Source of the DNA: Thermoplasmata archaeon
Lineage (GTDB): Archaea; Thermoplasmatota; E2; JACPAO01; JAHFTW01
DNA: 64,000 nt
Direction: 5' to 3'
NCBI GenBank assembly: GCA_034667725.1
Contig: JAXDQS010000004.1
Location: 30,973-94,972 of the forward strand
The translations under genes were made by a program, and so were the position numbers. Each line of letters begins with the position of its first letter. The stretch's first letter is position 1. The notes beneath the pieces are model-generated. The model saw only the letters and a list, made by a program, of their open reading frames with translations, was not told the origin of the DNA and searched no databases. This document shows positions 2,657 through 64,000 of this stretch, one piece after another.

Positions 2657-2662
2657 GGCGGC

Positions 2663-3325: not shown

Positions 3326-3327
3326 CG

Positions 3328-3356: not shown

Positions 3357-4009
3357 TAACGCAAGGGGAGCCGGCGCTCGCCGCTCGCCATGTAGAGCGC
3401 CTTCTCCGCGATCTTGCGGGCGTTGTCGCCGGTGCGCTCCAGGTGCCGGGCCACCAGGATGTGGTGGGCGTGCAGCGTGATGGTGCGCGGGTCCTCCATC
3501 ATGTAGGTGATGGCCTGGCGGAAGATCTGGTCGTAGAGAGTGTCCACCACCTCGTCCATGGCCGCGACCCCGCGCGCCTTGGCCGCGTCCCGCTCCTTGT
3601 ACGCCTCGATGGCGCGGTCGTACATCTCCATCGCCTTCTCCGCCATCAGGTTGAACGCCAGCGGCTTGCGGGGCAGCTTCTGGTCCCCCAGTTCCAGCGT
3701 CGCCTTGGCGATGTCGTAGCCGTAGCGGCCGATGCGGTCGATGTAGGTGATGACCTTGAGGCTGGCCCCGATGGTGCGCAGGTCGGCCGCCATCGGCTGG
3801 TTCAGGGCCAAGAGCGACAGCGCCTCGGCCTCGATCTCGACGTCGAGCCGGTTGAGCTCCTCCTCGCGCTGGATGACGCGGCGGGCCAAGGCGGCATCCC
3901 CGTCCACCAGGCTGCGGACGCCCTCGACGAGGTTCAGGCGGGCCTGGTCCGCCATGTGCAGGACGCGGGCCTTGAGCTGGTCGATCTCGTTGTGGAACTC
4001 CTTGGTCAT
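3356..4009 (-). CDS. phoU: Phosphate signalling protein PhoU
   Basis: 217 aa, two PhoU repeats (ALNQPMAADLR..., IARHLERTGDNARKIAE); directly downstream of pstB. Confidence 0.9.
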   Translation of the reverse strand: MTKEFHNEIDQLKARVLHMADQARLNLVEGVRSLVDGDAALARRVIQREEELNRLDVEIEAEALSLLALNQPMAADLRTIGASLKVITYIDRIGRYGYDIAKATLELGDQKLPRKPLAFNLMAEKAMEMYDRAIEAYKERDAAKARGVAAMDEVVDTLYDQIFRQAITYMMEDPRTITLHAHHILVARHLERTGDNARKIAEKALYMASGERRLPLR

Positions 4010-4012
4010 GGG

Positions 4013-4807
4013 TCACCCGAAGCGGCCGGTCACGTAGGCCTCCGTCTGCGCGTTGCGCGGGTTCTCGAACAGGTCGCGGGTCGTGCCCTCCTCGATGAGC
4101 TCGCCGAGGTAGAAGAACGCCGTGCGGTCGGAGACCCGCGCGGCCTGCTGCATGTTGTGGGTCACGATGACGACGGTGTGGTCGCGCCGCAGCTCCGCCA
4201 TCAGGTCCTCGATCTTCGCGGTCGCGATCGGGTCGAGGGCGGAGCACGGCTCGTCCATCAGGATGACGTCGGGCCGCACCGCGAGCGCGCGGGCGATGCA
4301 GAGCCGCTGCTGCTGGCCGCCGGAGAGCGCCGTGCCGGGCTGGTCCATGCGGTCCTCGACCTCGCCCAAGAGGTGCGCCTTGGCGAGCGCCTCGCGGACG
4401 CGGTCCTTGACCTGCTCGCGCGACAGGCCGCCGTCGAGCCGCAGGCCGTAGGCGACGTTCTCGAAGATCGACTTGGGGAACGGGTTGGGCTTCTGGAACA
4501 CCATGCCGACCTGGCGCCGGAGGGCGGCCGCCTCGACGCCGCGGGCGTGCACGTCGTGGCCGTGGTACAGCAGCCGCCCCTCGACGCGGGCGCCGGGGAT
4601 GAGGTCGTTCATGCGGTTGAGGCAGCGCAGGAAGGTGGACTTGCCGCAGCCGGACGGGCCGATGAAGGCCGTGACCTGGCGGCGCGGGATGTCGAGGCTG
4701 ACGTCCTTGAGGGCGTGCTTGTCGCCGTACCAGACGTTGAGGCCGCGCACGGCGAAGGCCGCGGCGGTGTCCTGGAGGGGGGTCGGGGGTGCGAGGGTGG
4801 TGGTCAT
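4013..4807 (-). CDS. pstB: Phosphate ABC transporter ATP-binding protein PstB
   Basis: GPSGCGKST Walker [15 protein letters not shown] signature, [11 protein letters not shown] Walker B, C-terminal YVTGRFG. Start taken at internal Met48 of track ORF 4013-4948. Confidence 0.95.
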
Positions 4808-4812
4808 GGGGT

Positions 4813-5678
<866 letters not shown>

Positions 5679-5682
<4 letters not shown>

Positions 5683-6602
5683 GCGAACCGCCTCCGGTAG
5701 CGGGCGAGGATGAACTCGGCCGCCAGGTTGACGGCGAAGGTGAGCGCGAACAGGTAGGCGCCGATGGCGAAGATGGAGCGGTACTGGATCGAGCCGTCAG
5801 GCAGGTCGCCGCCGGCGCGGTTGGCGATGAACGACGTGATGGTCTGCGCCGGCTCGAGGTAGTCCCAGGTCATGGTGGGCACCAGGCCGGCGGCCAGCGT
5901 CACGACCATGGTCTCGCCGATGGCCCGGCTGAAGCCCAGGATGGTGGCGGCGGTGATGCCGCTGCGGGCGGCGGGCAGCACGACCTTCCAGGTGGCCTCC
6001 CACTTGGTGGCGCCGAGGGCGAGGGCGCCTTCCCGCAGCTCGCGCGGCACGGCCCGGAGCGCGTCGTCGGAGATGCTGGAGATGATGGGCACCACCATGA
6101 CGCCGAGGGCCAGGGACGCCGACAGGGCGGTGAACAGCGGCGCGTGGAACGTGGACTGGATGAACGGGCCGATGACGAACAGCGCCAGCAGGCCGAACAC
6201 GATGCTCGGGATCCCGGCCAAGAGCTCCAGCGTGGGCTTGAGGACGCGGCGGGTGCGGTCGCCCGCGAACTCGCTGAGGTAGAGCGCGGAGCCGACGCCG
6301 AGGGGGATGCCGATGAGGCTCGCGCCGACCGCGACCTGGATGGTGCCCTTCAACAGCGGGACCGAGCCGTACTGGCGCGGCAGGAAGTCGGGCGCCCAGG
6401 TGGTGCCGAACAGGAACTCCGCCATGTCCACGGCGGCGAAGAACTGGAAGCCGTTGGTGAGCAGGGTGAGGAAGATGGCGGCCGTCGTGACCGTGGCCAC
6501 CGTCGCCGACGCGAACAGCAGCACCAGGATCCCGCGCTCGGCCAGGCGGGCGGCTTGGAGGCGCCGGCTGGCAAGGACGGGGACGGTCGGGGCCTCGGTC
6601 AT
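5679..6602 (-). CDS. pstC: Phosphate ABC transporter permease PstC
   Basis: 307 aa, [15 protein letters not shown] loop; 4-nt overlap with pstA. Confidence 0.9.
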
Positions 6603-6609
6603 GGGCGGC

Positions 6610-7548
6610 TCAGGCGATCTTGGCTTGCATCTCGGCGAGCTTGGCGGCGGGCATCCGGATGTACTTCACGGCGGCCACCAGGTCTTGGCCCTCCTGGGAG
6701 AGGCCCTTCTCGAAGTAGGCCTTCAGGACGCCGGCCGGCTTGCCGTCGGTGTACATGAAAAGCGGGCGGGCGAGCGGGTGGTACTTGCCGCCCTCGACGT
6801 TGGCGTCCGTGGGCTCGACGCAGCCGTTGCCCTTGCCCTCGTCGACGCCGACGACGCGCACCTTGTCCGGATGCTCGCGGGCGTAGGCCAGGCCGAAGTA
6901 GCCGAGCGCGTAGGGGCTGGAGGCCACGCCCTGCACCAGGACGTTGTCATCCTCCGACGGCGTGTAGTCGCTGCGGCCCTTGGTCTCCTTGCCGTCGACG
7001 GGGGCGAGGATGGCCTCGACGAAGTACTCGAAGGTGCCCGAGTCGGTGCCGGGGCCGAACAGCTCGAAGGCCTCGTCCGGCCAGTCGGCGTCCAGGTCCT
7101 TCCAGCGCTTGGCCTGCTTGGCGGCGTCGGCGGTCCAGACCTGGTGCAGCTGGGCGGTCGTGAGGCAGTGGACGAAAGTGTTGGAGGCGGCCACGACCAC
7201 CGACAGGCCGTCGACCGCGACCTGGATCTCGAACGGCTCGATGCCCTTGGCCTTGCAGTCGGCGACCTCGGTCGCCTTGATCGGCCGGCTGGCGTCGGCG
7301 ATGTCCAGCTCGCCGCGGCAGAAGCGCGCGAGGCCCGCGCCGGAGCCGCCGCCGCCCACCACGATGCTGGCGCCGACGTCGCGGCCGAAGGCCTCCGACC
7401 ACGCCTGCGCGATGGGGTAGACCGTCGAGCTGCCGGCTTGGTCGACGACGACGCGGCTGCCGGCGCATCCAGCCAGCAGGAGGAGAAGGAGGGCGAGGGA
7501 CGCAAAGGTGCGCTGCATGGGCCAGGAGGCAGGCGGGCCGGGCTTCAC
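6610..7548 (-). CDS. pstS: Phosphate-binding lipoprotein PstS (copy 1)
   Basis: Lipobox LLLAGC, GSSTVYP, GGGSGAG, GPGTDSGTF. GTG 7548 lies about 29 nt downstream of a CTATAG box (leaderless); alternative ATG 7518. Confidence 0.9.
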   Translation of the reverse strand: MKPGPPASWPMQRTFASLALLLLLLAGCAGSRVVVDQAGSSTVYPIAQAWSEAFGRDVGASIVVGGGGSGAGLARFCRGELDIADASRPIKATEVADCKAKGIEPFEIQVAVDGLSVVVAASNTFVHCLTTAQLHQVWTADAAKQAKRWKDLDADWPDEAFELFGPGTDSGTFEYFVEAILAPVDGKETKGRSDYTPSEDDNVLVQGVASSPYALGYFGLAYAREHPDKVRVVGVDEGKGNGCVEPTDANVEGGKYHPLARPLFMYTDGKPAGVLKAYFEKGLSQEGQDLVAAVKYIRMPAAKLAEMQAKIA

Positions 7549-7574
7549 CGTAACCTCCGGATTCTAGGGTTTCT

Positions 7575-7580
7575 CTATAG
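7575..7580 (-). promoter_or_regulatory. TATA box for pstS copy 1
   Basis: CTATAG followed 22 nt later by TACGGTGAAG, the same decamer that carries the GTG start of the DUF47 gene. Confidence 0.45.
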
Positions 7581-8609
7581 TCAGGCGATCTTGGCTTGCA
7601 TCTCGGCAAGCTTCGGGGCCGGGAGCTTGATGTAGCCGACCTCGTGGACGATCTCCTGCCCGCCCGCCGAGAGCCCCTTCTCGAAGTAGGCCTTGAGGAC
7701 GCCGGCGGGCTTGCCCTTCGTGTACATGAAAAGCGGGCGGGAGAGCGGGCTGTACTTGCCGCCCTCGACGTTGGCGTCCGTCGGCTCGACGCAGCCGTTG
7801 CCCTTGCCCTCGTCCACCTTGACGACGCGCACCTTGTCCGGGTTCTCCTTGGCGTAGGCCAGCCCGAAGTAGCCGAGCGCGTGTTGGCTGGAGGCCACGC
7901 CCTGCACAAGCACGTTGTCGTCCTCCGACGGCGTGTAGTCGCTGCGGCCCTTGGTGTTGGCGCCGTCGAACGGCGTGATGATGACCTCGACGAAGTAGTC
8001 GAAGGTGCCCGAGTCGGTGCCGGGGCCGTAGAGCACGATGGGCTGGTCCGGCCACGCGGGGTCGAGCTGGCTCCACTTGGTCACCTGCTTGGAGGCGTCC
8101 GCGGTCCAGATGCGGTTGAGCTGGGCGACCGTCAGGCACTGCACGAAGGTGTTCGACGTCGCGACCACGACCGACAGGCCGTCGACGGCGACCTGGATCT
8201 CGAACGGCTCGATGCCGGCGTTGCGGCAGGTCGTCTTCTCCGCGTCGCGCATCGGGCGCGAGGCGTCCGCGATGTCCAGCTCGCCGCGGCAGAAGCGGCT
8301 GATGCCGGCGCCGGAGCCGCCGCCGCCAACGACGATGTTGGCGCCGATGGCGCGGCCGTGCTCCTCGGCCCAGGCCTGCGCGATCGGGTAGACCGTCGAG
8401 CTGCCGGCCTGGTTGACGAGCTGCCGGCCGCCGGAGCCGCCCGTCACGACCTGCACGCTGGTGCTGGTGGCGGTGACGGTCTGGCCCGCCGCGTTGGTGG
8501 TGGTGAAGGTCTGGGTGTGCGTGGTGGTGTTGCTGGTGCTGGCCGCGCAGCCTGCCAACAGGAGGATGGCGACGGCGGAGGCGGCGGTCAAGGCGGGCTT
8601 GAGGTTCAT
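7581..8609 (-). CDS. pstS: Phosphate-binding lipoprotein PstS (copy 2, with Thr-rich linker)
   Basis: Last 342 aa of track ORF 7581-10475: MNLKPAL...LLLAGC lipobox, about 40-aa T/S-rich linker, then a PstS fold collinear with copy 1 and the same C-terminus AEMQAKIA. AAGGTG Shine-Dalgarno-like motif upstream of the ATG. Confidence 0.9.
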   Translation of the reverse strand: MNLKPALTAASAVAILLLAGCAASTSNTTTHTQTFTTTNAAGQTVTATSTSVQVVTGGSGGRQLVNQAGSSTVYPIAQAWAEEHGRAIGANIVVGGGGSGAGISRFCRGELDIADASRPMRDAEKTTCRNAGIEPFEIQVAVDGLSVVVATSNTFVQCLTVAQLNRIWTADASKQVTKWSQLDPAWPDQPIVLYGPGTDSGTFDYFVEVIITPFDGANTKGRSDYTPSEDDNVLVQGVASSQHALGYFGLAYAKENPDKVRVVKVDEGKGNGCVEPTDANVEGGKYSPLSRPLFMYTKGKPAGVLKAYFEKGLSAGGQEIVHEVGYIKLPAPKLAEMQAKIA

Positions 8610-10822: not shown

Positions 10823-11323
10823 GTGCTGGAGCTGAAGATCGACGGCTGGCGCAAGGGCCTGCGCTTCTCGAGCGCGCACATCACGCCGGAGCACAAGAAG
10901 TGCGGGCGGCTGCATGGGCACACCTACGCCATCCACCTGCGGATGCGGGGCGCGCAGGACGAGTGGGGCATCGTGCTGGACTTCGGCGTCATCACCGACA
11001 CCCTGAAGCAGATCGGCGACGAGATCGACCACCTGGTGCTGGTGCCGACGGAGTCGAACCACTACTCGGACCTGCAGGTGACGGAGCAGGAGGTCAGGTT
11101 CCGCGTCATCGACCCCTACACCGGCGAGCCCAAGCGGTTCAGCTTCCCCCGGCAGGACTGCGCGCTGCTGCCCATCCCGAGCACGACGGCGGAGGACCTG
11201 GCGAAGTACGTGTACCGCGAGTTCATGCGGCGCACCAAGTTCACGACGGCGACCGCGTTCGTCGAGGTCGGCGTGGACGAGGGATACGGGAAGGGCGCCT
11301 GGTTCGCGGAGAAGTGGAGCTAG
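10823..11323 (+). CDS. queD: 6-carboxy-5,6,7,8-tetrahydropterin synthase (QueD / PTPS family)
   Basis: FSSAHITPEHKKCGRLHGHTY... Zn/His motif. Start set at GTG 10823 to avoid overlap with the DUF1294 gene; the track ORF begins at 10745. Confidence 0.85.
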   Translation: MLELKIDGWRKGLRFSSAHITPEHKKCGRLHGHTYAIHLRMRGAQDEWGIVLDFGVITDTLKQIGDEIDHLVLVPTESNHYSDLQVTEQEVRFRVIDPYTGEPKRFSFPRQDCALLPIPSTTAEDLAKYVYREFMRRTKFTTATAFVEVGVDEGYGKGAWFAEKWS

Positions 11324-11952
11324 CTGGGCGGGGGCAAGAACGGCACAACCGCCAGCACCATGCGGGGGTCCATGGCGCCGCATTCCACGTCGTACGCGTC
11401 CTCTTGCGGGGTCACGCGGGCCACGGGGCGGCCGCCGCACAAGACTTCGTAGGCGGCGGCGCGGCGGCGCACTTCAGCCACGACCTCGCCGCGGTGGTCC
11501 TGGACGCACAGCACGGCGGCGCCGCCGCGCACCGGGCCTTGCGGGACGCACACGGCGCCGAGGCGTTCGCCGTCGGCGGTGAACTCGTGGACGAAGACCT
11601 TGGTCCGGCCGACCCAGGCGGTGCGGCGCCAGCGTTCGCCGGCGCGGACCTCCAGCCAGGCCGTGCGGCGGCCGTGCAGCACGAACCGCAGCCAGGCCGG
11701 CCGGAGCGCGCCGCCTTCCAGGCGCGCGGCTCCGAGGCGCTTGCCGTGCGGGTCGTGCAGGGTGTAGGCGTCGGCCTCGGCCCGCAGCAGGAACCGGACG
11801 CGCGGCGGGGCGGGCCGCGGCGGCGTGGGCGCCATGCGGCGGATGGGGCCGCCGGCCTGGACGGCGTCGGGGCCGGAGGCGGCCGGGAGCACGATGCGGG
11901 GCGGGGCGCGGGAGGGGGAGGGACGGCGGACGACCGCGCCTGGCTCGGGCAT
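11320..11952 (-). CDS. Hypothetical protein, possibly LURP-one/tubby-like (DUF567) fold
   Basis: From internal Met50 of track ORF 11320-12099. Beta-rich repeats ...YTLHDPHGKRLG..., ...VQDHRGEVVAEVRR..., end YDVECGAMDPRMVLAVV. The N-terminus is P/R-rich. Weak call. Confidence 0.35.
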   Translation of the reverse strand: MPEPGAVVRRPSPSRAPPRIVLPAASGPDAVQAGGPIRRMAPTPPRPAPPRVRFLLRAEADAYTLHDPHGKRLGAARLEGGALRPAWLRFVLHGRRTAWLEVRAGERWRRTAWVGRTKVFVHEFTADGERLGAVCVPQGPVRGGAAVLCVQDHRGEVVAEVRRRAAAYEVLCGGRPVARVTPQEDAYDVECGAMDPRMVLAVVPFLPPPS

Positions 11953-12010
11953 AGGGTGGGAACCGGCGGGGTGCCCATGAAGCCCGCTTTCGCGGCAGGG
12001 TCGGGCGGGC

Positions 12011-12727
12011 GTGGGCCGCCACGGTGATAACCGACGGGCGGGTGGGCCGTCTGTGCCTAGCAAGGCGGTCGTGCTGTTGTCGGGGGGCTTGGACTCCACG
12101 ACCGCCGCGGCGTGGGCGAGGCGCGAGGGGCACGCGGTCTACGCGGTGAGCTTCGACTACGGGCAGCGGCACCGCAAGGAGCTGGAGCGCGCCAAGGCGG
12201 TCGCGAAGGCCGTGGGCGTCGTGGCGCACGTGGTGTTGCGGGTGCCGCTCGACCAGCTCGGGGGCTCGGCGCTCACGGACGCCGGCATCGAGGTGCCGGA
12301 CGCGCCCGCGGCGGGCAACATCGGCGACCAGATCCCCGTCACCTACGTGCCGGCGCGCAACACCGTGTTCTTGGCGTTGGCGCTGGCCTATGCGGAGACG
12401 GTCGGGGCGCAGCGGCTCGTCATCGGCGCCAACGCGCTCGACTACTCGGGCTACCCGGACTGCCGGCTGGAGTACCTGGAGGCGTTCGAGCGCATGGCGA
12501 ACCTGGCCACGAAGGCCGGCGTCGAGGGGGCGGCCATCACCGTCTCCGCTCCGTTGTTGCATCTCAGCAAGGCCGAGATCGTGCGCCTGGCCGTCGAGCT
12601 GGGCGCCCCTATCCACTTGACTTGGAGCTGCTACCGCGGGGGCAAGGCGCCGTGCGGGGCGTGCGAGTCGTGCGTGCTGCGGGCGCAGGGCTTCGCGGCG
12701 GCGGGTGTCGCGGACCCGGGGGCTTGA
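12011..12727 (+). CDS. queC: 7-cyano-7-deazaguanine synthase QueC
   Basis: [15 protein letters not shown]-loop, [10 protein letters not shown]-terminal [10 protein letters not shown] zinc site. GTG starts possible at 12011 or 12053. Confidence 0.9.
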
Positions 12728-40524: not shown

Positions 40525-40986
40525 CTACTTCTGCGGGTCGCGGCTGGCACGGATGATGTCGGCCACCCGGCGGGCGCGCTCCATCTTCTCCTTCTCCTCG
40601 TCGGTCTCCGCCACGACGCCAGGCACCGGGATGGGCTTGTTGTTGCGGTCGAGCGCGACGAACGTCATGTAGCAGCTCGCGGTGTGGCGCACCTCCCCCG
40701 TGGTGGGGCTCTCGGCCTCGACCCGGATGCCCACAAGCATGCTGGTGCGGCCGACGTGGCGGACGGTGGCCTTGATGACCAGGATGTCCCCGATGTAGAC
40801 CGGCTCGCGGAAGTCCATGCGCTCCAGCGACACCGTGACGACCTTGGGCACGCGGGCATGGCGCCAGGCGGCGACCGCGGCCGCCTCATCGATGTACTTC
40901 AGGATGGCGCCGCCATGCACGTTGCCGTAGACGTTGGCCTCGTCCGGCGTCATCAGCTTCGACATGGTGGTGGCGGACTGGCGCAT
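40525..40986 (-). CDS. Acyl-CoA thioesterase (hotdog fold, YciA/Acot type)
   Basis: TPDEANVYGNVHGGAILKYIDEAA, FREPVYIGDIL. Alternative ATG at 41019. Confidence 0.85.
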   Translation of the reverse strand: MRQSATTMSKLMTPDEANVYGNVHGGAILKYIDEAAAVAAWRHARVPKVVTVSLERMDFREPVYIGDILVIKATVRHVGRTSMLVGIRVEAESPTTGEVRHTASCYMTFVALDRNNKPIPVPGVVAETDEEKEKMERARRVADIIRASRDPQK

Positions 40987-41248
40987 CGGCACCGGCGGGA
41001 TGCCAGACGGCTTGGGCATGCCTGCGCGCATCAAGTCAAGGGATTTCAGGGCGAAGGTCCGCGGGCCGGTCCCCTTGCCGGCGGCAAGCCCCGCGGAACA
41101 CGCCGGTTTCCCCGATGGAGCGGGCCCGCGGCGAGGTGGGCGCCAAGCTTGTCCACGGACAACGCACGGATTGTTTCCGTCCTGCTGCAGTCGTTTCCAG
41201 CTTTCTCCAGCAACGGTCAAGTAGCGACTTCCGGCCAAGACGCCCTGC

Positions 41249-46825: not shown

Positions 46826-47380
46826 TTAAACTTGGCCAGCGGCCGGGGGGAGCTTCCCCTTCTTCGGCGACAACGCCTTCGCCTGCCCGGCGGCCGGCAA
46901 CCCCAGCGGCGCCCCGGGTTGGGCGGGGTTCTCCTCGACCTTCTTCTTGACCTCGCGGGCGGCGGCGGCCATGGCGGGGGCGGCCTCCTTCGCGCGGGTG
47001 GCCTGCTCGCGCTCGTCGTAGAGCTGCTCGACCACCTCCCAGACGGTGCGGATGTGCGGGATGGTGATGCTGCCGCCGACGACCAGGGCGACGTTGAGGG
47101 CGTCCAGCAGCTCGGCCTTCTTCCAGCCGACCTCGACGCAGCGGTCGCAGTGGTAGGCGATGCAGTCATTGCAGCGCAGCACCGTGGAGGCGACCAGGCC
47201 AAGCAGCTCCTTGGTCTTCTCGTCCAGGCCGCCGGTGGCCGTCAGGTCGCGGTAGGCCGCCGAGTCGAGGGCGAAGAACCGCTTGAGGTCGCGGTGGTCT
47301 TCCTTCAGCAGGTTGTCCGTCTTGCGGCGGCGGGAGGCGCGGAACTCGTGCAGGTCCATCCGGTCGGGCTGCTCGGACAC
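46826..47380 (-). CDS. Carboxymuconolactone decarboxylase / AhpD-like family protein
   Basis: LGLVASTVLRCNDCIAYH CxxC core; basic, P/A-rich C-terminal tail. Confidence 0.8.
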   Translation of the reverse strand: MSEQPDRMDLHEFRASRRRKTDNLLKEDHRDLKRFFALDSAAYRDLTATGGLDEKTKELLGLVASTVLRCNDCIAYHCDRCVEVGWKKAELLDALNVALVVGGSITIPHIRTVWEVVEQLYDEREQATRAKEAAPAMAAAAREVKKKVEENPAQPGAPLGLPAAGQAKALSPKKGKLPPAAGQV

Positions 47381-47442
47381 GGCCCTGCGAGGACGGGGGG
47401 CGGACTTGGGCCTTTGCCCGTCCCACCTTGTGGACAGGTCGG

Positions 47443-47925
<483 letters not shown>

Positions 47926-47978
47926 GGTTCAGGTCGGCGCGGCAGCAGCTTCAAGCTGGCGCCCGCCTGGCGGCGCGC

Positions 47979-48392
47979 GTGCAGGTGCGGGCCGAGGAGC
48001 TGCGGGAGCGTTTCGTGTGCGTCGTCCCCCACGCCGGCACGCTGGCGGAGGTGGACAAGACCCGCCGCCCGCTTTACCGCCACATGGTGGTGCAGGAGCT
48101 GGTGGGCGGGCCGAGCATCCTGCGGTTTTGGCCCGATGGCCGGCTGGACGCGCTGGTGCAGACGCACGCGGGCTTCGACGGCGACGAGGTGTGCACGGTC
48201 GAGCGGCTGGCGCCCGGCCCCTACGCGGTGCTGGACTACGAGGGCCCCGAGGAAGGGCTGGCCGAGGCGCGCGAGCGCATCCTGGCCTGGGTGAAGGCGA
48301 AGGGCCACCCGGCGCGGCCGCTGTTGCAGGTCCACCTCATGGACGCGATGGACGGCATCGTCGAGCAGCAGTTCCAGGTTCCCCTGGCTTGA
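47979..48392 (+). CDS. GyrI-like small-molecule-binding domain protein
   Basis: 137 aa beta-alpha pattern ...YAVLDYEGPEEGLAEARERILAWVKAKG. Confidence 0.55.
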   Translation: MQVRAEELRERFVCVVPHAGTLAEVDKTRRPLYRHMVVQELVGGPSILRFWPDGRLDALVQTHAGFDGDEVCTVERLAPGPYAVLDYEGPEEGLAEARERILAWVKAKGHPARPLLQVHLMDAMDGIVEQQFQVPLA

Positions 48393-48445
48393 CCCCTGGG
48401 CGCCGCCAAGAAAAGCCATATGGACGAGGCGGCCGGTCCCGAGTC

Positions 48446-48964
48446 GTGTTGCGCCCAGGCGATGCGGCCCCCGACTTCGTCCTGAAGGACGCCGACGGCA
48501 ACGACGTCCGCCTGTCGTCGTTCGCGGGCCATCCCATCCTGCTGTTCTTCTACCCGCGGGACAACACCGCCGGCTGCACGCTGGAGGCGAAGAAGCTGCG
48601 CGACGCGGCGGGGGGGTTCGCGCGCCACGGCGCCCACGTGGTCGGGGTCAGCATGGACTCGCCGGAGACCCATTGCGCCTTCCGCGACAAGCACGACCTG
48701 CCGTTCACGCTGCTGTCCGACGCCGAGGGCCGGGTGCATGACCTGTACTCGGCGTGGCGCACCCACCTCTTGGGCAGGCGCCCGATCGGGGTCCGGCGCT
48801 GCAGCTTCCTCATCGACGGCGACGGCATCATCCGGGTCGTCTACAAGCACGTCCGGCCGCTCTCGCACGCCCGCCAGGTCCTGAAGGACCTGGAGCGGCT
48901 GGAGGCGCAGGAGTCGTGGGGCAAGCCGACGACGCCCGGCATCAAGGAGCTGCTGCGGCGCTAG
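48446..48964 (+). CDS. bcp: Peroxiredoxin (Bcp type, 1-Cys variant)
   Basis: Last 172 aa of track ORF 47837-48964; FFYPRDNTAGCTLEA, GVSMDS, FTLLSDAEG; GTG start. Confidence 0.85.
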   Translation: MLRPGDAAPDFVLKDADGNDVRLSSFAGHPILLFFYPRDNTAGCTLEAKKLRDAAGGFARHGAHVVGVSMDSPETHCAFRDKHDLPFTLLSDAEGRVHDLYSAWRTHLLGRRPIGVRRCSFLIDGDGIIRVVYKHVRPLSHARQVLKDLERLEAQESWGKPTTPGIKELLRR

Positions 48965-49458
48965 GCAGGCGGGGCGGGCGTCACTTCGACCAGCACCGTG
49001 CTGGCCTCGACGGCCGACCCTTCGCTGACGTGGACGCGCGCGACCGTGCCCGCGATGGGCGACTTGAGGTCGTTCTGCATCTTCATCGCCTCCAGGACCA
49101 AGAGCACGTCGCCCTCGGCCACGACCTGGCCTTCCTTGACCTTGACCTCGACGATCTTGCCGGGCATGGGGGGCTTGATGCGGCCGTCGTTCTTGCGGCC
49201 GGCGGCGTTCTTCCGGACCAGCTCGGGGCGGGCGCGGCGGACCTCCAGGTCCAGCAGGTGGGGGCCCTCGAACACCTGGCCGTTGCGGACGATGAACTCG
49301 AACGCCTTGCCCTCGACCGTGACCTTGTAGTGGCCCTTCGCGAGGGTCTCGACCTTGGGCGCGAACGGCTCGCCCTCGACCACGAACTTGGGGCCTTCGG
49401 CGTGCTCCTCGACGGTGACGTGGTGCAGGCGGCTGCCCAACTGGAACGAGTAGCGCAT
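48961..49458 (-). CDS. accB: Biotin carboxyl carrier protein
   Basis: Last 165 aa of track ORF 48961-50349; biotinyl-lysine motif VLEAMKMQN. Its ATG overlaps the accC stop by 1 nt. Confidence 0.9.
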   Translation of the reverse strand: MRYSFQLGSRLHHVTVEEHAEGPKFVVEGEPFAPKVETLAKGHYKVTVEGKAFEFIVRNGQVFEGPHLLDLEVRRARPELVRKNAAGRKNDGRIKPPMPGKIVEVKVKEGQVVAEGDVLLVLEAMKMQNDLKSPIAGTVARVHVSEGSAVEASTVLVEVTPAPPA

Positions 49459-51041
49459 CAGAGCAGCCCCCCGATGGCCTCGCGGCGGCCTTTCTGGCCC
49501 CAGGGGGACAGGCGGCGGCGCCCGAACTCGTCGACGCCGACGTTGGTGGCGGCGCTCTGCTTGAACTGGTATGCCTTCTGCACCAGCGAGTCGATGCCGC
49601 CGGGCTCCTGCGCCAGGGCGGCGGCGAGGGCGGCGAGCTTGACCTTGGTCTCCTTCGTGACGGCCTCCTCGACGCCCATGAGGCGGTCGAGGATGCGGCG
49701 CTCGTCGAGGAACTTCGTGGTCATGTCGCCGGCGCAGAACGCCTCGTCCTCGAAGATGACCTGGTGCAGCTCGCGGTTGGTGACGAGGTTGCCGAGGTCG
49801 TACTCGGCAAGGGCGCGGCGCATCTTGCGGATGGCCTCGGGCCGGTCGGCGCCGTAGCAGATGAGCTTGGCGACCATCGAGTCGTAGGTCGAGGGCACCT
49901 GGAAGCCGGAGTAGAGGTAGGTGTCCACGCGGACGCCGTTGCCGTTGGGCGGGACGTGGCGCGCGATCAGCCCAGGCGTCGGCATGAACTTGTTGCGCGG
50001 GTCCTCGGCGTTGATGCGGCACTCGATGGCCCAGCCGCGGCGGCGGGCATCGACCCACTTCTGGTCGTAGCCGAGCGGCTCGCCGGCGGCGATGCGAATC
50101 TGCTCGCGCACCAGGTCGATGCCGTAGACCTGCTCGGTGACGGGATGTTCGACTTGGAGGCGGGTGTTGACCTCGTTGAAGTAGAACTTGCCCTCCTCGT
50201 AGAGGAACTCCGCGGTGCCGGCGTTCCAGTAGCCGACGTCCTTGGCCAACTGGCACACCGACGCGCCGACGCGGGCGCGGTCCTCGTCCTTGACGATGGG
50301 GCTGGGGGCCTCCTCGATGAGCTTCTGGTGGCGGCGCTGGACGCTGCATTCGCGCTCGCCGAAGTGGACGACGTTGCCGTGCTCGTCGGCGAGGAACTGG
50401 ATCTCGATGTGGCGGGGGCGCGTGATGAACTTCTCGATGAACACCTCGCCGCGCCCGAAGGCGGCCTTGGCCTGGCGTTGGGTGGCCGCGAGCGCGCCGG
50501 CAAGCTCGGACTCCGACTGGACGACCTGCATCCCCATGCCGCCGCCGCCGAACGCCGCCTTGATGATGACGGGGTAGCCGGTGAGCTTGACGACCTCACG
50601 CGCCTCGTCGAGGGTGGCGACGAACTCGTCCTTGCCGGGCACGACGGGCACCTTGGCCCTGCGCGCCGCGACCTTGCTCGCCACCTTGTCGCCCAGGACG
50701 TCGATTGGCTTCGGGGGCGGGCCGATGAACTTGACGCCGGCCTTCGCAAGCGCGGTGGCGAACTCGCTGCGCTCCGACAGGAAGCCGTAGCCAGGGTGGA
50801 CCGCGTCGGCGCCGACCTTCTGGGCCAGCTCCACGATAGCGGGGATGTTGAGGTAGTTCGTGGACGACGCCTCGTTGCCCAGGAGGTAGGACTCGTCGGC
50901 GAAGCGGACGTGCGGCGCCTTGGCGTCCTGCGGGCTGTGGATGGCCACGGTCTGGATGCCCAGCTCGCGGGCGGTGCGCATGACGCGCAGGGCAATCTCG
51001 CCACGGTTGGCGACCAGGATCTTGCGGAACAGGGGCTTCAT
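49458..51041 (-). CDS. accC: Biotin carboxylase subunit of acyl-CoA carboxylase
   Basis: Last 527 aa of track ORF 49458-51782; KILVANRGEIALRV, HPGYGFLSE, KAAFGGGGMGM, EVNTRLQVEHPVTE. ATGA overlap with bioY. Confidence 0.95.
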   Translation of the reverse strand: MKPLFRKILVANRGEIALRVMRTARELGIQTVAIHSPQDAKAPHVRFADESYLLGNEASSTNYLNIPAIVELAQKVGADAVHPGYGFLSERSEFATALAKAGVKFIGPPPKPIDVLGDKVASKVAARRAKVPVVPGKDEFVATLDEAREVVKLTGYPVIIKAAFGGGGMGMQVVQSESELAGALAATQRQAKAAFGRGEVFIEKFITRPRHIEIQFLADEHGNVVHFGERECSVQRRHQKLIEEAPSPIVKDEDRARVGASVCQLAKDVGYWNAGTAEFLYEEGKFYFNEVNTRLQVEHPVTEQVYGIDLVREQIRIAAGEPLGYDQKWVDARRRGWAIECRINAEDPRNKFMPTPGLIARHVPPNGNGVRVDTYLYSGFQVPSTYDSMVAKLICYGADRPEAIRKMRRALAEYDLGNLVTNRELHQVIFEDEAFCAGDMTTKFLDERRILDRLMGVEEAVTKETKVKLAALAAALAQEPGGIDSLVQKAYQFKQSAATNVGVDEFGRRRLSPWGQKGRREAIGGLL

Positions 51042-51916
51042 GCGGGTTCCTCGGTGGCGAGCTCCCTGCCCGAGGGCAGGAAGGAGACGGAGGCGAGGAC
51101 GGCGAGGCCGGCCTTGAGGACATCGAAGGGCAGGAACACGGTGCTGCCGAGGGCGAACGCCTTCGACCAGGACCATCCCAGCGTGAGCTTCAGCACCGGG
51201 ACGCCGCACAAGTGGATGATGGCGACGGCCCCCAGCAGGACCAGGTAGAGGTTCAGCGCCTCGGAGCCGGCCGCGCGGCGGGACAGCAGCCAGCCGACCA
51301 CGGGCGCGCACACCAGGAACAGCCCACCGAACAGCCAGGCATAGTCCAGGGTCGCGTCGTAGGCGTCGCCGCTGCCGGCGCCCGCGAACGAGCCGCCGCC
51401 CGCCAAGAAGAAGGTGCTGCCCACGACGCCCAGCAGCAGGACCAAGAGGCCGAAGCCGACGGCGCGGGTCCAGCGGGCGTCGAGCCCGCGCTGGCGGCGG
51501 CGCATGTAGGCCCCGACGAACGCGGCCGCCGCGAAGAAGCCGACGAGGTAGCCTGCGGTGTAGCCGGTCTGACGCACAACGTCGGGCACCAGCACGCGCC
51601 AGCGGTCGGCGTGCCAGAGCGCGTCGGGGTTGAACGCGTCGGCGCTCGGCGCGAACACGTGCAGCCCCGCGAGTCCGGCCGCGAGGTAGAGACCCATCGA
51701 CACCATCGCCCAGCGGCCGCCGAGCATGACGCCGGCGAGCGCTACGCCCAGCACTTGGAAGGTGAACGGCACCGGCGTCCACGGCAGCGGCAGCGACACC
51801 TGCGCCAAGAGCGCGGTGAGGCCCGTGAAGGCGGCCGCGAAGCCGGCCTTGGCCATCCAGCCGAGCTCGTGCGCCTGGCGGTACGCCCGCAGCCGCGCGA
51901 CCCGGACGTCCGTCAC
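51038..51916 (-). CDS. bioY: BioY-family biotin transporter (long form, 292 aa)
   Basis: PWTPVPFTFQVLGVALAGVMLG BioY core motif; six or more TM helices. GTG start lies 1 nt after the PKS stop codon. Confidence 0.8.
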   Translation of the reverse strand: MTDVRVARLRAYRQAHELGWMAKAGFAAAFTGLTALLAQVSLPLPWTPVPFTFQVLGVALAGVMLGGRWAMVSMGLYLAAGLAGLHVFAPSADAFNPDALWHADRWRVLVPDVVRQTGYTAGYLVGFFAAAAFVGAYMRRRQRGLDARWTRAVGFGLLVLLLGVVGSTFFLAGGGSFAGAGSGDAYDATLDYAWLFGGLFLVCAPVVGWLLSRRAAGSEALNLYLVLLGAVAIIHLCGVPVLKLTLGWSWSKAFALGSTVFLPFDVLKAGLAVLASVSFLPSGRELATEEPA

Positions 51917-51917
51917 C

Positions 51918-60845
<8,928 letters not shown>

Positions 60846-61012
60846 GGGGACGACGCTCCAGGACCCCGGGTGGGGGCCCCGGCATTGGGTGGCATTCCCG
60901 GGGTAGGGGTCCACCAGATGAAACCTCTGCTTCCGGCCCTGTGGCGTGCTGTGCCAGGCCCTGCCGGCCACGCGGCCTGTGGGACCCGCCTTTCTTTAAC
61001 CCAACAGAAGGG

Positions 61013-61498
61013 ATGGCGCCTATCCGCTTCGACCAGCACCCCAACGCCTTGCTCGTGCACCATCTCTACGACGCGCTCGCCCGCCGCGACGGCGACGCCA
61101 TGGCCGCCTGCTACACGCCCGACGCCGCCTTCTCGGACCCGGTCTTCCCCGACCTGCACGGCGCCGAGGTCGGGGCGATGTGGCGGATGCTCACCGCCCG
61201 CGGCGGCAGCATCACGGTCGAGGTCCGCGAAGTGGTCGCCAGCGCCACGGACGGCACCGCGACCTGGGAGGCGCGCTACCTGTTCGGCGCCACCGGCCGC
61301 AAGGTCCGCAACGTGGGCAACGCGGTGTTCACCTTCCGCGACGGCCGGATCGCGACGCACGTCGACACCTGGTCGTTCTCGGCGTGGGCGGCGCAGGCGC
61401 TCGGGCTGCGCGGGCGGCTGCTGGGCAAGACCGCGTTCCTGCGCCGGAAGGTGCGAAGGCAGGCGAGGCGAGGGTTGGAGAAGCTCCTCCCAGGATGA
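61013..61498 (+). CDS. SnoaL-like / NTF2-fold protein (polyketide-cyclase-like family)
   Basis: From Met25 of track ORF 60941-61498; LVHHLYDALARRDGDAMAACYTPDAAFSDPVF...FTFRDGRIATHVDTW. Divergent from the PKS gene. Confidence 0.65.
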   Translation: MAPIRFDQHPNALLVHHLYDALARRDGDAMAACYTPDAAFSDPVFPDLHGAEVGAMWRMLTARGGSITVEVREVVASATDGTATWEARYLFGATGRKVRNVGNAVFTFRDGRIATHVDTWSFSAWAAQALGLRGRLLGKTAFLRRKVRRQARRGLEKLLPG

Positions 61499-61505
61499 TC
61501 AGCCA

Positions 61506-63128
61506 CTACAGTGGCGTCAGCCCATGCTTCTTCTGCGGCCGCTGCTCACGCTTGTTGATCAAAGGCCACAGCGCCTGGATCAACCGGGGCCGGGTCTCGC
61601 TCGGCTCGATGACGTCGTCGATCCAGCCCCGCTCCGCCGCGACGTAGGGGTTGGCGAACTTCTCCTGGTATTCGGCCTGGAACCTGGCGGCGAGCTCCTT
61701 GGCCTTGGCGGGGTCCTCCTCGAGGAGCTTCTGCATGTCGCGCTTGTAGAGGATGTTGACCGCGCCCTCGGCGCCCATGACGGCGATCTCGGCGGCGGGC
61801 CAGGCGAAGTTGACGTCGCTGCCGACGTGCTTCGAGGACATGACGATGTAGGCGCCGCCGTAGGACTTGCGGGTGATGACCGCGAGCTTGGGGACCGTGG
61901 CCTCGCAGTAGGCGTACAGCAGCTTGGCGCCGTTGCGGATGATGCCGCCGTGCTCCTGGCCGAGGCCGGGCAGGAAGCCGGGCACGTCGACGAACGAGAT
62001 GATGGGGAAGTTGAACGAGTCGCAGAACCGGATCCACTTGGCGGCCTTGATGCTGGCCTCGATGTCGAGGGCGCCGGCGAGGACGCTGGGCTGGTTGGCG
62101 ACGATGCCGACGGGGTAGCCGTCGAGGCGGGCAAGGCCGATCACGACGTTGGTGGCCCACTTGGACTGCAGCTCCTCCCAGGTGCCCTTGTCCATGATGC
62201 GGGTGATGATGTCGCGGATGTCGTAGGGCTTGTTCGGGTTGGGCGGGACGATGGTGTCCAGTTCCAGGTCCATGCGGAAGCGGTCGTCGGTCGGCTTGAC
62301 GACGGGCAGCTCGGAGAGGTTGTTGCTCGGGAGGTAGGTGAGCAGGCTGCGGATCTTGCGGATGGCGTCGTCCTCGTCGAGGCCCGAGAAGCTCGCGACC
62401 CCGGACTTGACGGTGTGCACCGAGGCGCCGCCCAGCTCCTCCTGGCTGGCCTCCTCGCCGGTGACGGTCTTGACGACGTCGGGGCCCGTCACGAACATAT
62501 GGGACGAGTCCTCGACCATCACGACGAAGTCCGTGAGCGCCGGGGAGTACACCGCGCCGCCGGCGGACGGGCCGACGATGACGGAGATCTGCGGGATGAC
62601 GCCGCTGGCCTGGACGTTGCGGAAGAAGATGTCGCCGTAGCCCGCGAGGGACGCGACCCCCTCCTGGATGCGGGCGCCGCCGGAGTCGTTGAAGCCGATG
62701 ATGGGCGCGCCGTTGCGGATCGCCATCTCCTGGACCTTGCAGATCTTCCTGGCCGTCTGCTCGCCCAGGGAGCCGCCGAGCACCGTGAAGTCCTGGCTGT
62801 AGATGTAGACCACGCGGCCGTTGACGTAGCCGTAGCCGGTCACGACGCCGTCGCCGTCGAAGCGCGACTTGTCCATCCCGAAGTGGGTGGCCTGGGTGCG
62901 GACGAAGGGATCGAGCTCGACGAACGTGCCCGGGTCGCACAGCAGGTCGATGCGCTCGCGGGCGGTGTACTTGCCCTTGTCGTGCTGGGCCTGGATGCGG
63001 GCCGTGCCGCCGCCCAGCATCGCCTTGGCCTTGCGGTCGCGCAGGCGGGCGATGGGGTCGAGCGGCTCGGTGGCGGCGAGGCCGTTCTTGGGCTTCGCGG
63101 CCTCCTTGGGCACGGCGGTCGGGCTCAT
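61506..63128 (-). CDS. pccB: Acyl-CoA carboxylase carboxyltransferase subunit (PccB/AccD5 family)
   Basis: GGG..RIQAQHDKGKYTARERI, FTVLGGSLGE, GFNDSGGARIQEG, PGFLPGLGQEHGGIIRNGAKLLYA. ATG 63128 lies about 27 nt downstream of the TTTACATA box (63152-63159). Confidence 0.95.
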   Translation of the reverse strand: MSPTAVPKEAAKPKNGLAATEPLDPIARLRDRKAKAMLGGGTARIQAQHDKGKYTARERIDLLCDPGTFVELDPFVRTQATHFGMDKSRFDGDGVVTGYGYVNGRVVYIYSQDFTVLGGSLGEQTARKICKVQEMAIRNGAPIIGFNDSGGARIQEGVASLAGYGDIFFRNVQASGVIPQISVIVGPSAGGAVYSPALTDFVVMVEDSSHMFVTGPDVVKTVTGEEASQEELGGASVHTVKSGVASFSGLDEDDAIRKIRSLLTYLPSNNLSELPVVKPTDDRFRMDLELDTIVPPNPNKPYDIRDIITRIMDKGTWEELQSKWATNVVIGLARLDGYPVGIVANQPSVLAGALDIEASIKAAKWIRFCDSFNFPIISFVDVPGFLPGLGQEHGGIIRNGAKLLYAYCEATVPKLAVITRKSYGGAYIVMSSKHVGSDVNFAWPAAEIAVMGAEGAVNILYKRDMQKLLEEDPAKAKELAARFQAEYQEKFANPYVAAERGWIDDVIEPSETRPRLIQALWPLINKREQRPQKKHGLTPL

Positions 63129-63151
63129 GGCGTCGCGGGCCACGCCCACCC

Positions 63152-63159
63152 TATGTAAA
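63152..63159 (-). promoter_or_regulatory. TATA box for pccB (leaderless spacing)
   Basis: TTTACATA on the minus strand, about 27 nt upstream of ATG 63128. Same spacing as the pit, pstS and abrB-phoU promoters. Confidence 0.45.
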
Positions 63160-63216
63160 GGCTTGTCCGGATGTGCCATTGTGCCCGGCACACCGGGCCA
63201 TTGCGAACCTGTGCGG

Positions 63217-63651
63217 TCACATCATCATGTCGTGCGGTTGGACGACGATGGTGCCGGTCATGCTCGGGTGGACCTTGCAGTGGTAGGCGACAGTGCCCTC
63301 CTTCGCGAAGCCCTGCTCGATGACGTCGCCGTCCGCCATGCAGACCGGCGCCACGCCGACGGGGGCCGCGCAGTTGGGGTGCGAGTCGTAGCTGCCGTCG
63401 TCGTAGGTCACGGTGTGGCCGGTGGTGCCGTCGTTGTGGGTCCAGCGCACCTTGTCGCCCACGTGGATCATGGTCGTCTGGTTGACGAAGGCATTGCCCT
63501 CGAGGCTGACGTCATGCGTCATCGCCATGTGCATCATGCCGCCCGTGTCCGACGACGAGGAGGTCGTCATGGTGGAGGAGCCGTCGGTGTCGGAGGAGGA
63601 GCAGCCCGCAAGGGCGAGCATCAGCGTGGCAGCGGCCAGGAGGAGGCGCAT
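63217..63651 (-). CDS. Type-1 copper (plastocyanin/halocyanin-like) lipoprotein
   Basis: Lipobox LALAGC, S/T linker, TTGHTV (His), YHCKVHPSM (Cys-His-Met ligands). Confidence 0.85.
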   Translation of the reverse strand: MRLLLAAATLMLALAGCSSSDTDGSSTMTTSSSSDTGGMMHMAMTHDVSLEGNAFVNQTTMIHVGDKVRWTHNDGTTGHTVTYDDGSYDSHPNCAAPVGVAPVCMADGDVIEQGFAKEGTVAYHCKVHPSMTGTIVVQPHDMMM

Positions 63652-63699
63652 GCGCTCGACGAGCCGGCGGCGGGTATGGCGTTTGTGGTGGGGCCATGG

Positions 63700-64000
63700 C
63701 TACTCGAGCAGCCAAGTGTAGCCTTGCAGGAGGGTCGCGGCGCCCAAGGCCCAGGCCCGCCACGGCCGGACGCCGGGCGCGGCCAGCGCCAGCCACAGCA
63801 GCGGGAGCTGGGCCGCCGCGACGTAGCGCAGCGGGTCCCGCCAGAGTGGCGAGAAGCCGTCGGCCCCGTCCTCCACGACATGGAAGACCGCCGCGAACAG
63901 GAAGCCCAGGAAGACCATCAGGCCGGCGGCCAGCAGCAGCCCGCTCACGGCCTCGTCCCGCCAGCGCGCCGCTTGCGTGCGCAGCGGGCCCCAGAACGCC
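63700..64000 (-). CDS. Hypothetical membrane protein, N-terminus possibly beyond the window
   Basis: Track ORF 63700-63948. The frame stays open to the window edge; two or three hydrophobic helices. Confidence 0.3.
   Translation of the reverse strand, partial: AFWGPLRTQAARWRDEAVSGLLLAAGLMVFLGFLFAAVFHVVEDGADGFSPLWRDPLRYVAAAQLPLLWLALAAPGVRPWRAWALGAATLLQGYTWLLE

Follow-up and report, generated by a model that had tools for sequence, protein, structure and literature searches.

A PfaA-like synthase gene set among acyl-CoA carboxylase genes in Thermoplasmatota archaea

A stretch of 64,000 nucleotides from the genome of an uncultured Thermoplasmata archaeon (GenBank assembly GCA_034667725.1, contig JAXDQS010000004.1, positions 30,973 to 94,972), the whole of which is called here the window, carries a gene of a large synthase of the polyketide synthase (PKS) type. 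This gene is accompanied by genes of the three subunits of an acyl-CoA carboxylase, i.e., the carboxyltransferase (CT; pccB), biotin carboxylase (BC; accC), and biotin carboxyl carrier protein (BCCP; accB), as well as by bioY, encoding a biotin transporter component. We consider it likely that this locus is an archaeal, horizontally mobile lipid-synthesis cassette, in which an iterative PfaA-like synthase of the so-called Type R is placed inside a three-subunit acyl-CoA carboxylase operon. The initial annotation of this DNA proposed that the synthase is wired to the carboxylase for its malonyl-CoA, and this proposal is supported by a conserved gene linkage, by an Ile/Cys signature in the CT, and by malonyl-type motifs in the acyltransferase (AT) domain of the synthase.

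The conservation of the gene order was examined in relatives, with flanks of +/-10 kb around each locus. A scan with the synthase sequence, with one genome per species, gave 22 close loci (L002-L023), all of them in Thermoplasmatota metagenome-assembled genomes (a few of which are mislabelled as "bacterium" or "Halobacteriales"), with synthases 49-75% identical to that of the window; a metagenome scan with pccB gave one further close relative (L024), and its remaining 79 loci constitute an out-group and not sister genomes. The linkage is kept across the Thermoplasmatota loci. The pccB gene lies directly upstream of the synthase gene in 16 of the 17 close loci having an upstream flank, and the gap amounts to -4 to 141 nt except in three of those 16, L023, L006, and L005, where it is 338-703 nt (the L005 spacer, the sole one examined, contains a hypothetical open reading frame (ORF) of 230 aa). 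Downstream of the synthase gene, bioY-accC-accB was found in seven loci and accC-accB directly in two, with overlaps of 1-8 nt, and in L005 an opposite-strand gene intervenes. Among the close relatives, 7 of 10 have bioY, and all distant relatives lack it. The flanks of the relatives have nothing in common with the window beyond a gene of a small copper protein upstream of pccB, and the synthase-carboxylase linkage is therefore not just a matter of overall genome collinearity.

In the window, the synthase, bioY, accC, and accB genes are all located on the minus strand, and base-by-base reading confirmed their three junctions as first described. The synthase stop codon (TGA, 51920-51918) is separated by one base (G, 51917) from the GTG start of bioY (51916-51914), and bioY ends within the tetranucleotide ATGA at 51041-51038, in which accC begins (an overlap of 4 nt). 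In the same manner, accC ends and accB begins within TGATG at 49460-49456 (an overlap of 1 nt), and accB itself ends with TAG at 48963-48961. Such tight junctions are conserved in relatives, and when BioY is taken to begin at the GTG, its N-terminus matches those of its homologs in the alignment, which supports the tight synthase-bioY junction. We infer that these genes are co-transcribed. The start of the synthase gene was placed at ATG 60845, where both the homologs and the public gene call begin, and an alternative GTG at 60971 was rejected for the same reason. A plus-strand ORF of 3,810 aa covering the synthase DNA was dismissed as a high-GC antisense artefact, the GC content at third codon positions (GC3) being 0.96 in the minus frame.

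The pccB gene was described as having its own TATA box and a leaderless ATG, and the sequence fits this description: a TATA-like box, TTTACATA, precedes the gene, and the motif CAAGGCTTTACATA is kept at the same distance from the pccB start in four relatives (L002, L004, L006, and L015). TTTACATA is probably the promoter of an ancestral operon, with a leaderless pccB mRNA. As pccB abuts the synthase gene in relatives, CAAGGCTTTACATA is kept, and the C/T-rich pccB-synthase spacers of the relatives contain no TATA-like box, the ancestral unit looks like one operon, pccB-PKS-(bioY)-accC-accB. The separate pccB unit of the window would then result from a lineage-specific insertion of a SnoaL_2 gene, which split this operon. 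The divergent spacer between the SnoaL_2 and synthase genes contains AT-rich boxes GTTAAAGAAAG and GGTTTCATCTG, and we infer that it holds the promoters of both the synthase-bioY-accC-accB unit and SnoaL_2. The SnoaL_2 gene itself, initially counted among the members of the module, has to be removed from it, since it is encoded on the plus strand, divergently from the synthase gene, and tblastn searches gave no match in L002-L023 or L024-L103; for the same reasons, its role as a conserved pathway cyclase was rejected. As regards the spacers of the relatives, those of L003, L004, L012, and L017 are 65-141 nt long and pyrimidine-rich, and in several such spacers a GC-rich inverted repeat follows right after the pccB stop codon (e.g., TGGGGGAGCCTGCGGCTCCCCA in L012). 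These repeats could be mRNA-processing or attenuation elements setting the pccB:synthase ratio.

Outside the group of close relatives, the same components are found in other arrangements. The order BC-BCCP-CT-PKS was found in two other archaea (L105 and L112), CT-PKS in the archaeal locus L111, CT-FabI-like-PKS in the archaeal locus L104, and copper protein-CT-PKS on a Thermoplasmatota contig (L114). In two Chloroflexota loci (L107 and L108), the order is acyl-CoA dehydrogenase-PKS-phosphopantetheinyl transferase (PPTase)-CT-BC-BCCP, and in an Elusimicrobiaceae genome (L113) it is PKS-PPTase-CT. The linkage thus survives reshuffling across two domains of life, and is therefore under selection.

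Relatives retaining the carboxylase set without the synthase, which would speak for an accidental linkage, were searched for, and none was found at a CT identity of at least 66%, the data being incomplete. The database-wide search with the CT gave a continuous series of homologs from 100% down to 66% identity, in which long contigs repeatedly coincide with synthase-bearing contigs, and the one unmatched CT contig that was checked turned out to be synthase-linked too. At lower identities (56-62%), in distant lineages, pccB-accC-accB without a synthase is common, and bioY is absent there.

The carboxylase genes encode well-recognizable enzymes. AccC comprises the Pfam domains Biotin_carb_N, CPSase_L_D2, and Biotin_carb_C, and scores 619 bits against NF006367 (cut-off 597). 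AccB contains the biotinylation motif EAMKM (residues 123-127, with Lys126). BioY matches the Pfam BioY family with 89.1 bits (cut-off 25), in two stretches owing to an insertion in this protein, with no NCBIfam match and no BioM/BioN genes nearby. PccB is a 12S-type carboxyltransferase, with E = 1e-200 to structures of propionyl-CoA carboxylase (PCC) beta subunits. Carboxylases composed of AccC, AccB, and PccB are known from the archaea Metallosphaera and Acidianus. The set of the window resembles the promiscuous acyl-CoA carboxylases of Streptomyces coelicolor (AccB) and Thermobifida fusca (AcCCase) (PMC7835884) in consisting of BC, BCCP, and a 12S-type CT, and its accC product has a C-terminal extension as in archaeal-type BC proteins (NF006406); it differs from them in the lack of an epsilon subunit and in the interruption of the operon by a 9-kb synthase gene and bioY.

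The substrate preference of such enzymes depends to a considerable extent on one residue: the D422I substitution lets S. coelicolor PccB accept acetyl-CoA, and the I420D substitution limits AccB of the same organism to propionyl-CoA, this position being important, with other determinants existing too (PMC7835884). The window CT has Ile428 at the position of D422/I420, as in the acetyl-CoA-accepting AccB. This mapping was verified against three PDB mutants distinguished solely by the residue at chain position 422, i.e., 1XNW (I), 3IAV (V), and 3IB9 (L). Synthase-linked CTs carry at this position, without exception, either Ile (archaea and Elusimicrobiota) or Cys (Chloroflexota), and Asp is present in 56 of 79 unlinked CT relatives. 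All CT homologs at least 66% identical to that of the window have Ile, bar an anomalous bacterial protein of 761 aa, P0155 (Asp; no identity was reported for it). Three Ile-bearing CTs that seemed to be unlinked (L079, L081, and L086) are located right after canonical pfa clusters. In L079, L081, and L086 (1-13600) these clusters, composed of PfaA, ketoreductase-dehydratase (KR-DH), AT, FabA-DH, PfaD enoyl reductase (ER), and PfaE genes, are followed by the genes of an Ile-type CT, BC, and BCCP. A second type of synthase is thus linked to a carboxylase as well. The Ile/Cys signature together with the malonyl-type AT motif supports carboxylation of acetyl-CoA for the synthase, and a second, housekeeping role is compatible with it; acetyl-CoA is thus the predicted substrate of the carboxylase. 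In a neighbor-joining tree (midpoint rooted, without bootstrap, and used for this grouping alone), archaeal synthase-linked CTs form one clade, and the identities of the CT and of the synthase to those of the window co-vary (Spearman 0.86, n=21).

Several observations weigh against this reading of the locus. Overall, the window CT is of the PCC type and its best solved relatives are PCC beta subunits; in L013 there is no pccB upstream of the synthase gene, in L109 there is no CT gene within 10 kb of it, and in L104 and L111 neither accC nor accB is present within 10 kb. The window's clade has no conserved enoyl reductase, thioesterase, or acyltransferase gene. The context of the cluster in L004 and L012, with an enoyl-CoA hydratase gene and a nearby acyl-CoA dehydrogenase gene, looks catabolic. 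Moreover, as pccB-accC-accB without a PKS is ordinary in distant lineages, the carboxylase operon may pre-date the synthase and keep housekeeping roles.

An explanation of a different kind can be put forward, in which the enzyme is a housekeeping acetyl/propionyl-CoA carboxylase (acting in propionate or odd-/branched-chain catabolism, or in anaplerosis), the synthase is a passenger that landed in its operon, and the linkage reflects history or convenient expression. The catabolic-looking context in L004 and L012 is its best argument; it is also favored by the PKS-free pccB-accC-accB adjacency, usual in dozens of other lineages, by the closeness of the window CT to solved PCC beta subunits, and by the fact that no second carboxylase gene was found elsewhere in the 64-kb window (the same is true of a separate acyl carrier protein (ACP) gene or any other fatty-acid gene), so that the linked carboxylase may be the sole one. 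However, the linkage is found in at least four gene orders, spread over archaea, Chloroflexota, and Elusimicrobiota, which would not be expected of a passenger. In addition, the linked CTs all have Ile or Cys in place of the Asp of PCC, the archaeal ones group in a single clade, and the search down to 66% CT identity gave no PKS-less relative. For these reasons we regard the passenger explanation as improbable, while stressing that a housekeeping function and a dedicated supply are not exclusive, as the carboxylase could serve both. The claim that the synthase is wired to its own carboxylase and has a built-in PPTase is supported, with the qualification that the biotin importer gene is missing from 3 of 10 close relatives and from all distant ones. 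Genes of the 3-hydroxypropionate cycle were not found within the 64-kb window.

The synthase has the domain order ketosynthase (KS)-malonyl-type acyltransferase (MAT)-second ketosynthase (KS')-ACPx3-KR-DH-PPTase, as recognized by Pfam (KS, AT, second KS, three PP-binding, KR, PS-DH, and ACPS), and the catalytic motifs are intact in KS1, MAT, KS', KR, DH, and PPTase. The MAT motifs GHSLGE and AAFHS are of the malonyl type (xAFH). In KS', the residues Cys1273, His1421, and His1461 were identified, and the Cys-His-His set is kept in 120 of 120 homologs; there are therefore two potentially active ketosynthases, and the label of chain-length factor (CLF) used for this domain in the 2011 classification is a misnomer. 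The PPTase domain, the built-in presence of which had already been pointed out, was found by both Pfam and NCBIfam at the C-terminus; it contains the motifs GVDLE and WAAKEAALK, and is 30% identical to the stand-alone PPTase adjoining a Chloroflexota homolog. A fused PPTase is present in 46 of the 120 best homologs, and all of those with a taxon label are archaeal. The top NCBIfam family of the synthase is TIGR02813 (PfaA), with 945.5 bits, i.e., under the cut-off of 1010.1. Its nearest non-archaeal homologs, with 44-47% identity over most of the length, are found in Chloroflexota (Caldilineaceae, Anaerolineae, Oscillochloris, and Kouleothrix), Elusimicrobiota, and Spirochaetota.

No enoyl reductase, FabA-type DH, or thioesterase domain was found in the synthase, and in the window's clade neither the cluster nor its surroundings contain an enoyl reductase gene. 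The synthase may thus make a hydroxy or polyunsaturated acyl chain, or else rely on an enoyl reductase from elsewhere. Genes of redox enzymes adjoin the synthase gene in other loci. In L104 (9175-9996) and L105 (19661-20452), a gene of a FabI-like enoyl-ACP reductase is located directly beside it (all top NCBIfam matches are FabI, at about 235 bits, under the equivalog cut-offs), and in L105 there is also a FabH-like gene upstream; in these clusters, the FabI-like protein would complete the fatty-acid elongation cycle. Right before the synthase gene in Chloroflexota there is a gene of a 550-aa acyl-CoA dehydrogenase (L107, 8262-9917; L108, 8248-9885), and in the Thermoplasmatota locus L109 (4715-8344) such a dehydrogenase gene is found upstream of it together with EtfB and EtfA-ferredoxin genes. 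The synthase-adjacent acyl-CoA dehydrogenases may be trans-acting enoyl reductases or desaturating partners.

The mycobacterial locus fadD32-pks13-accD4 is characterized by a CT gene beside a PKS gene, and its AccD4 carboxylates a long-chain acyl-CoA for a single Claisen condensation. By analogy, the CT of the window might carboxylate a long-chain acyl-CoA, and one of the ketosynthases might perform a head-to-head Claisen condensation, yielding an alpha-branched, mycolic-like lipid. The two loci are indeed alike in that a dedicated CT gene is kept beside a type I PKS, the carboxylated substrate being made where it is used, and the two intact ketosynthases and the acyl-CoA dehydrogenase or FabI-like gene of some clusters could be read in the same way. 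However, the window CT is far nearer to the short-chain enzymes of the AccD5/PccB type (600 and 650 bits) than to AccD4 (455 bits), the MAT carries a malonyl-type motif, the window synthase is an iterative reducing enzyme, and no FadD-type (FadD32-like) acyl-AMP ligase gene is conserved in the clusters, which makes a Pks13-like function very unlikely.

Among the Type R secondary lipid synthases, the synthase is best filed, on its domain content and gene context, as an archaeal variant that is fused to a PPTase and embedded in carboxylase genes. Type R was defined by a pfaA homolog with the order KS-MAT-CLF-ACP(3-6)-KR and a downstream PPTase, found in Acidobacteria, Elusimicrobia, and Chloroflexi, with an uncharacterized product (PMC3098273). 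The KS-MAT-second KS-tandem ACPs-KR order is present in the window synthase, with a DH in addition, a PPTase is always in the cluster, the product is uncharacterized in both cases, and bacterial phyla are shared among the nearest non-archaeal homologs, the type strains of 2011 being matched by phylum only. The differences lie in the archaeal host, in the fusion of the PPTase to the C-terminus in place of a separate downstream gene encoding the same component (as in L107, L108, and L113), in the Cys-His-His set retained by the CLF equivalent, and in the location of the synthase gene in the middle of an operon with a complete CT/BC/BCCP set and bioY. In the earlier study, an acetyl-CoA carboxylase gene was noted inside the Koribacter cluster and treated as a single case, and no archaea were listed (PMC3098273).

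Two other groups of synthases are similar to a lesser degree. With the polyunsaturated fatty acid synthases (PfaA/PfaE of the Shewanella/Moritella pfaEABCD clusters), the best family-level match, the window synthase shares KS-MAT, tandem ACPs, KR-DH, and an Sfp/HetI-type PPTase, as well as an iterative, malonyl-CoA-dependent mode of action; it differs from them in the additional KS' between the AT and the ACPs, in the fused PPTase, and in Thr in place of Ser in the ACPs. PfaB (AT), PfaC (KS-CLF-FabA DH), and PfaD (ER) are encoded neither in the window nor within +/-10 kb in the 22 relatives, and the true pfa cluster of L079 shows all of the Pfa partner genes. The enediyne PKSs (PKSE; SgcE and CalE8) have the order KS-AT-ACP-KR-DH-PPTase with a single ACP, and their reduction by KR and DH only leads to a conjugated polyene. 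The likeness to them concerns architecture only (an iterative type I enzyme, a C-terminal self-activating PPTase, and KR and DH as the sole reducing domains), as the PKSE has one ACP and no second KS, and its dedicated thioesterase and enediyne cassette genes are absent from the window locus. No description of the present system was found in open-access papers and bioRxiv (archaeal/Thermoplasmatota PKS and Asgard PKS).

The carrier domains of the synthase show a peculiar feature. Each of the three ACPs contains the motif DLGIDTV (at aa 1640, 1762, and 1878), with Thr at the canonical position of the phosphopantetheine-bearing Ser, and in alignments with known structures this Thr corresponds to the modified Ser of PigH, the Aquifex ACP, and the CurA ACPs. 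The Ser conserved in the DSL motif of PF00550, where helix II starts, is absent from all three. Across the 120 synthase homologs, Thr is present in 519 of 527 such motifs, and DLGIDSI is the form found in the ACPs of canonical pfa clusters. When the ACP region was used in an exhaustive, profile-free search, 143 more representative proteins were recovered, of which 105 have only Thr, 38 only Ser, and none a mixture of both. This all-or-none split, and the fact that a private PPTase is never missing, suggest that the PPTase is matched to the Thr acceptor. No description of carrier proteins with Thr in place of Ser was found in open-access papers and bioRxiv. We tentatively propose, giving this idea somewhat less than an even chance, that a Thr-linked phosphopantetheine, which would bear the acyl chains and be attached solely by the co-travelling PPTase (fused in archaea, adjacent in bacteria), and an Ile-type carboxylase together constitute an orthogonal portable cassette, which would provide an ACP- and malonyl-CoA-dependent fatty-acyl route to several archaeal lineages, i.e., Thermoplasmatota, other Euryarchaeota, and, probably, the Asgard Kariarchaeaceae.

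The lipid-synthesis cassette as a whole could work as follows. BioY would import biotin, and the BCCP would be biotinylated; AccC would carboxylate the biotin, and the PccB-type CT, with Ile at its specificity position, would transfer CO2 to acetyl-CoA to form malonyl-CoA. The C-terminal PPTase would convert the three ACPs of the synthase into the holo form, the MAT would load malonyl units, KS and KS' would elongate the chain, and KR and DH would reduce and dehydrate it. The product is predicted to be a long fatty-acyl chain, either hydroxy or (poly)unsaturated; with a trans-acting enoyl reductase, it would be saturated. The five genes would have formed ancestrally one operon transcribed from the leaderless pccB promoter.

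The archaeal origin of the module is evidenced by the genes of ribosomal protein S6e, jr-ZPR1 (a ZPR1-type zinc finger), and an AbrB-PhoU regulator in the window, by the Thermoplasmatota relatives, and by archaeal markers beside distant synthases, i.e., ribosomal proteins L1/L10 in L104, S3Ae in L111, and archease/RtcB in L105; the module is therefore genuinely archaeal. It might be argued that bacterial synthase DNA was mis-assembled or mis-binned into archaeal contigs, given that the closest non-archaeal homologs are bacterial (Chloroflexota, about 45% identity) and some related genomes bear the labels "bacterium" or "Halobacteriales", but the probability of this is negligible, as GC and GC3 are uniform between the cluster and its flanks, archaeal marker genes share contigs with the synthase (in the window, L104, L111, and L105), the putative promoter of pccB has an archaeal TATA-type box, and more than 20 assemblies show these junctions independently of one another.

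The gene layout of the window was established from the ORF list, a third-codon-position GC screen, and Pfam matches, and the features of the locus are presented in Table 1. The GC content is about 71% across the whole window (range 0.67-0.76), and GC3 is about 0.96 in the synthase-carboxylase cluster, equal to that of the flanks. The JGI metagenome contig Ga0467041_0000025 matches this DNA, and the gene calls, that of the synthase among them, are identical; according to coordinate arithmetic, the window extends for about 1.2 kb (62796-64000) beyond the end of this contig, and thus stems from a different assembly of the same organism or of a nearly identical one. Rfam and tRNA scans of the window revealed three tRNAs and nothing else.

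Table 1. Features of the synthase-carboxylase locus in the 64,000-nt window.
Feature	Position	Strand	Evidence and remarks
TATA-like box TTTACATA	63152-63159	-	23 nt upstream of the pccB ATG at 63128
pccB-type carboxyltransferase, 540 aa	61506-63128	-	Pfam Carboxyl_trans, 649 bits
SnoaL_2 (NTF2-like) gene	61013-61498	+	Pfam SnoaL_2, 71.9 bits; divergent from the synthase gene
Divergent intergenic spacer, 167 nt	60846-61012	.	Sequence
Synthase (PKS), 2,975 aa	51918-60845	-	Pfam; public gene call of identical 2,975 aa
KS1, aa 11-436	59538-60815	-	Pfam; Cys231, His365, His408; motifs DAACASS, EAHGTST, KSNMGHL
MAT, aa 603-914	58104-59039	-	Pfam Acyl_transf_1; TIGR00128 fabD, 222 bits
KS' (second, divergent FabF-like ketosynthase), aa ~1090-1525	56271-57578	-	PDB and NCBIfam FabF matches
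Three tandem ACPs, aa 1615-1682, 1735-1802, 1848-1915	55101-56003	-	Pfam PP-binding, 3 stretches
KR, aa 2141-2363	53757-54425	-	Pfam KR; DYSAAN motif
DH (PKS type), aa 2446-2729	52659-53510	-	Pfam PKS_DH_N / PS-DH; HxxxGxxxxP at His2476, motif LRDHKVDGVPYLP
PPTase (Sfp/HetI type), aa ~2780-2960	51966-52508	-	Pfam ACPS; NCBIfam pantethn_trn / HetI
bioY, biotin transporter S-component, 292 aa	51038-51916	-	Pfam BioY
accC, biotin carboxylase, 527 aa	49458-51041	-	Pfam, NCBIfam
accB, BCCP, 165 aa	48961-49458	-	Pfam Biotin_lipoyl, 70 bits

Among the neighboring genes, the one just upstream of pccB (63217-63651, minus strand) encodes a plastocyanin/halocyanin-like small copper protein with a lipobox-type signal (LAGCSSS); it is kept in most close relatives and in L114, and has no obvious link with the pathway. 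Directly downstream of accB (46826-48964), there are genes of two AhpC/TSA peroxiredoxins and a carboxymuconolactone-decarboxylase (AhpD-like) protein, the first of which is convergent with accB, the stop codons overlapping by 4 nt; this oxidative-stress cluster is not kept in relatives. In L004 (21232-22002) and L012 (23769-24539), accB is followed by the enoyl-CoA hydratase gene (with a 4-nt overlap in L004), and further on by genes of a metallo-beta-lactamase-fold protein, an HTH_10 regulator, and the acyl-CoA dehydrogenase, in the place occupied by the peroxiredoxin genes in the window. The peroxiredoxin and AhpD-like genes, as well as a gene of a 4HBT thioesterase (40525-41031), were considered as pathway partners and rejected, as the relatives do not keep them near the cluster. 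Elsewhere in the window, a complete phosphate-uptake block was found (1415-8609, minus strand), composed of genes of a PHO4 transporter, two PhoU proteins, PstB, PstA, PstC, and two PstS-like binding proteins, and the QueD/QueC genes (archaeosine/queuosine precursor) are located at 10823-12727.

Carboxylase genes inside polyketide or lipid clusters are already known, with one earlier case within the Type R family (PMC3098273), and what is new here is the generality of the CT link in this synthase family, the residue signature, the insertion into a carboxylase operon, and the archaeal hosts. The conserved packaging delimits a defined, clonable, and compact five-gene unit, which may be used for expression and for finding the product. 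The Thr-bearing carriers, if truly modified, would represent a new kind of prosthetic-group attachment, which would also explain the private PPTase in every cluster.

A question still open is how the fatty-acid membranes of eukaryotes arose (the "lipid divide"). Archaea are held to lack ACP, ACP synthase, and fatty-acid synthase (bioRxiv 10.1101/2024.07.05.601840). In this light, the cassette may be relevant to both archaeal lipids and the lipid divide, as an uncultured Thermoplasmatota clade and scattered other archaea, probably including an Asgard lineage, would possess a complete and apparently self-sufficient package of carrier domains, their activating enzyme, elongating and reducing domains, a malonyl-CoA-forming carboxylase, and, in many of them, a biotin importer.

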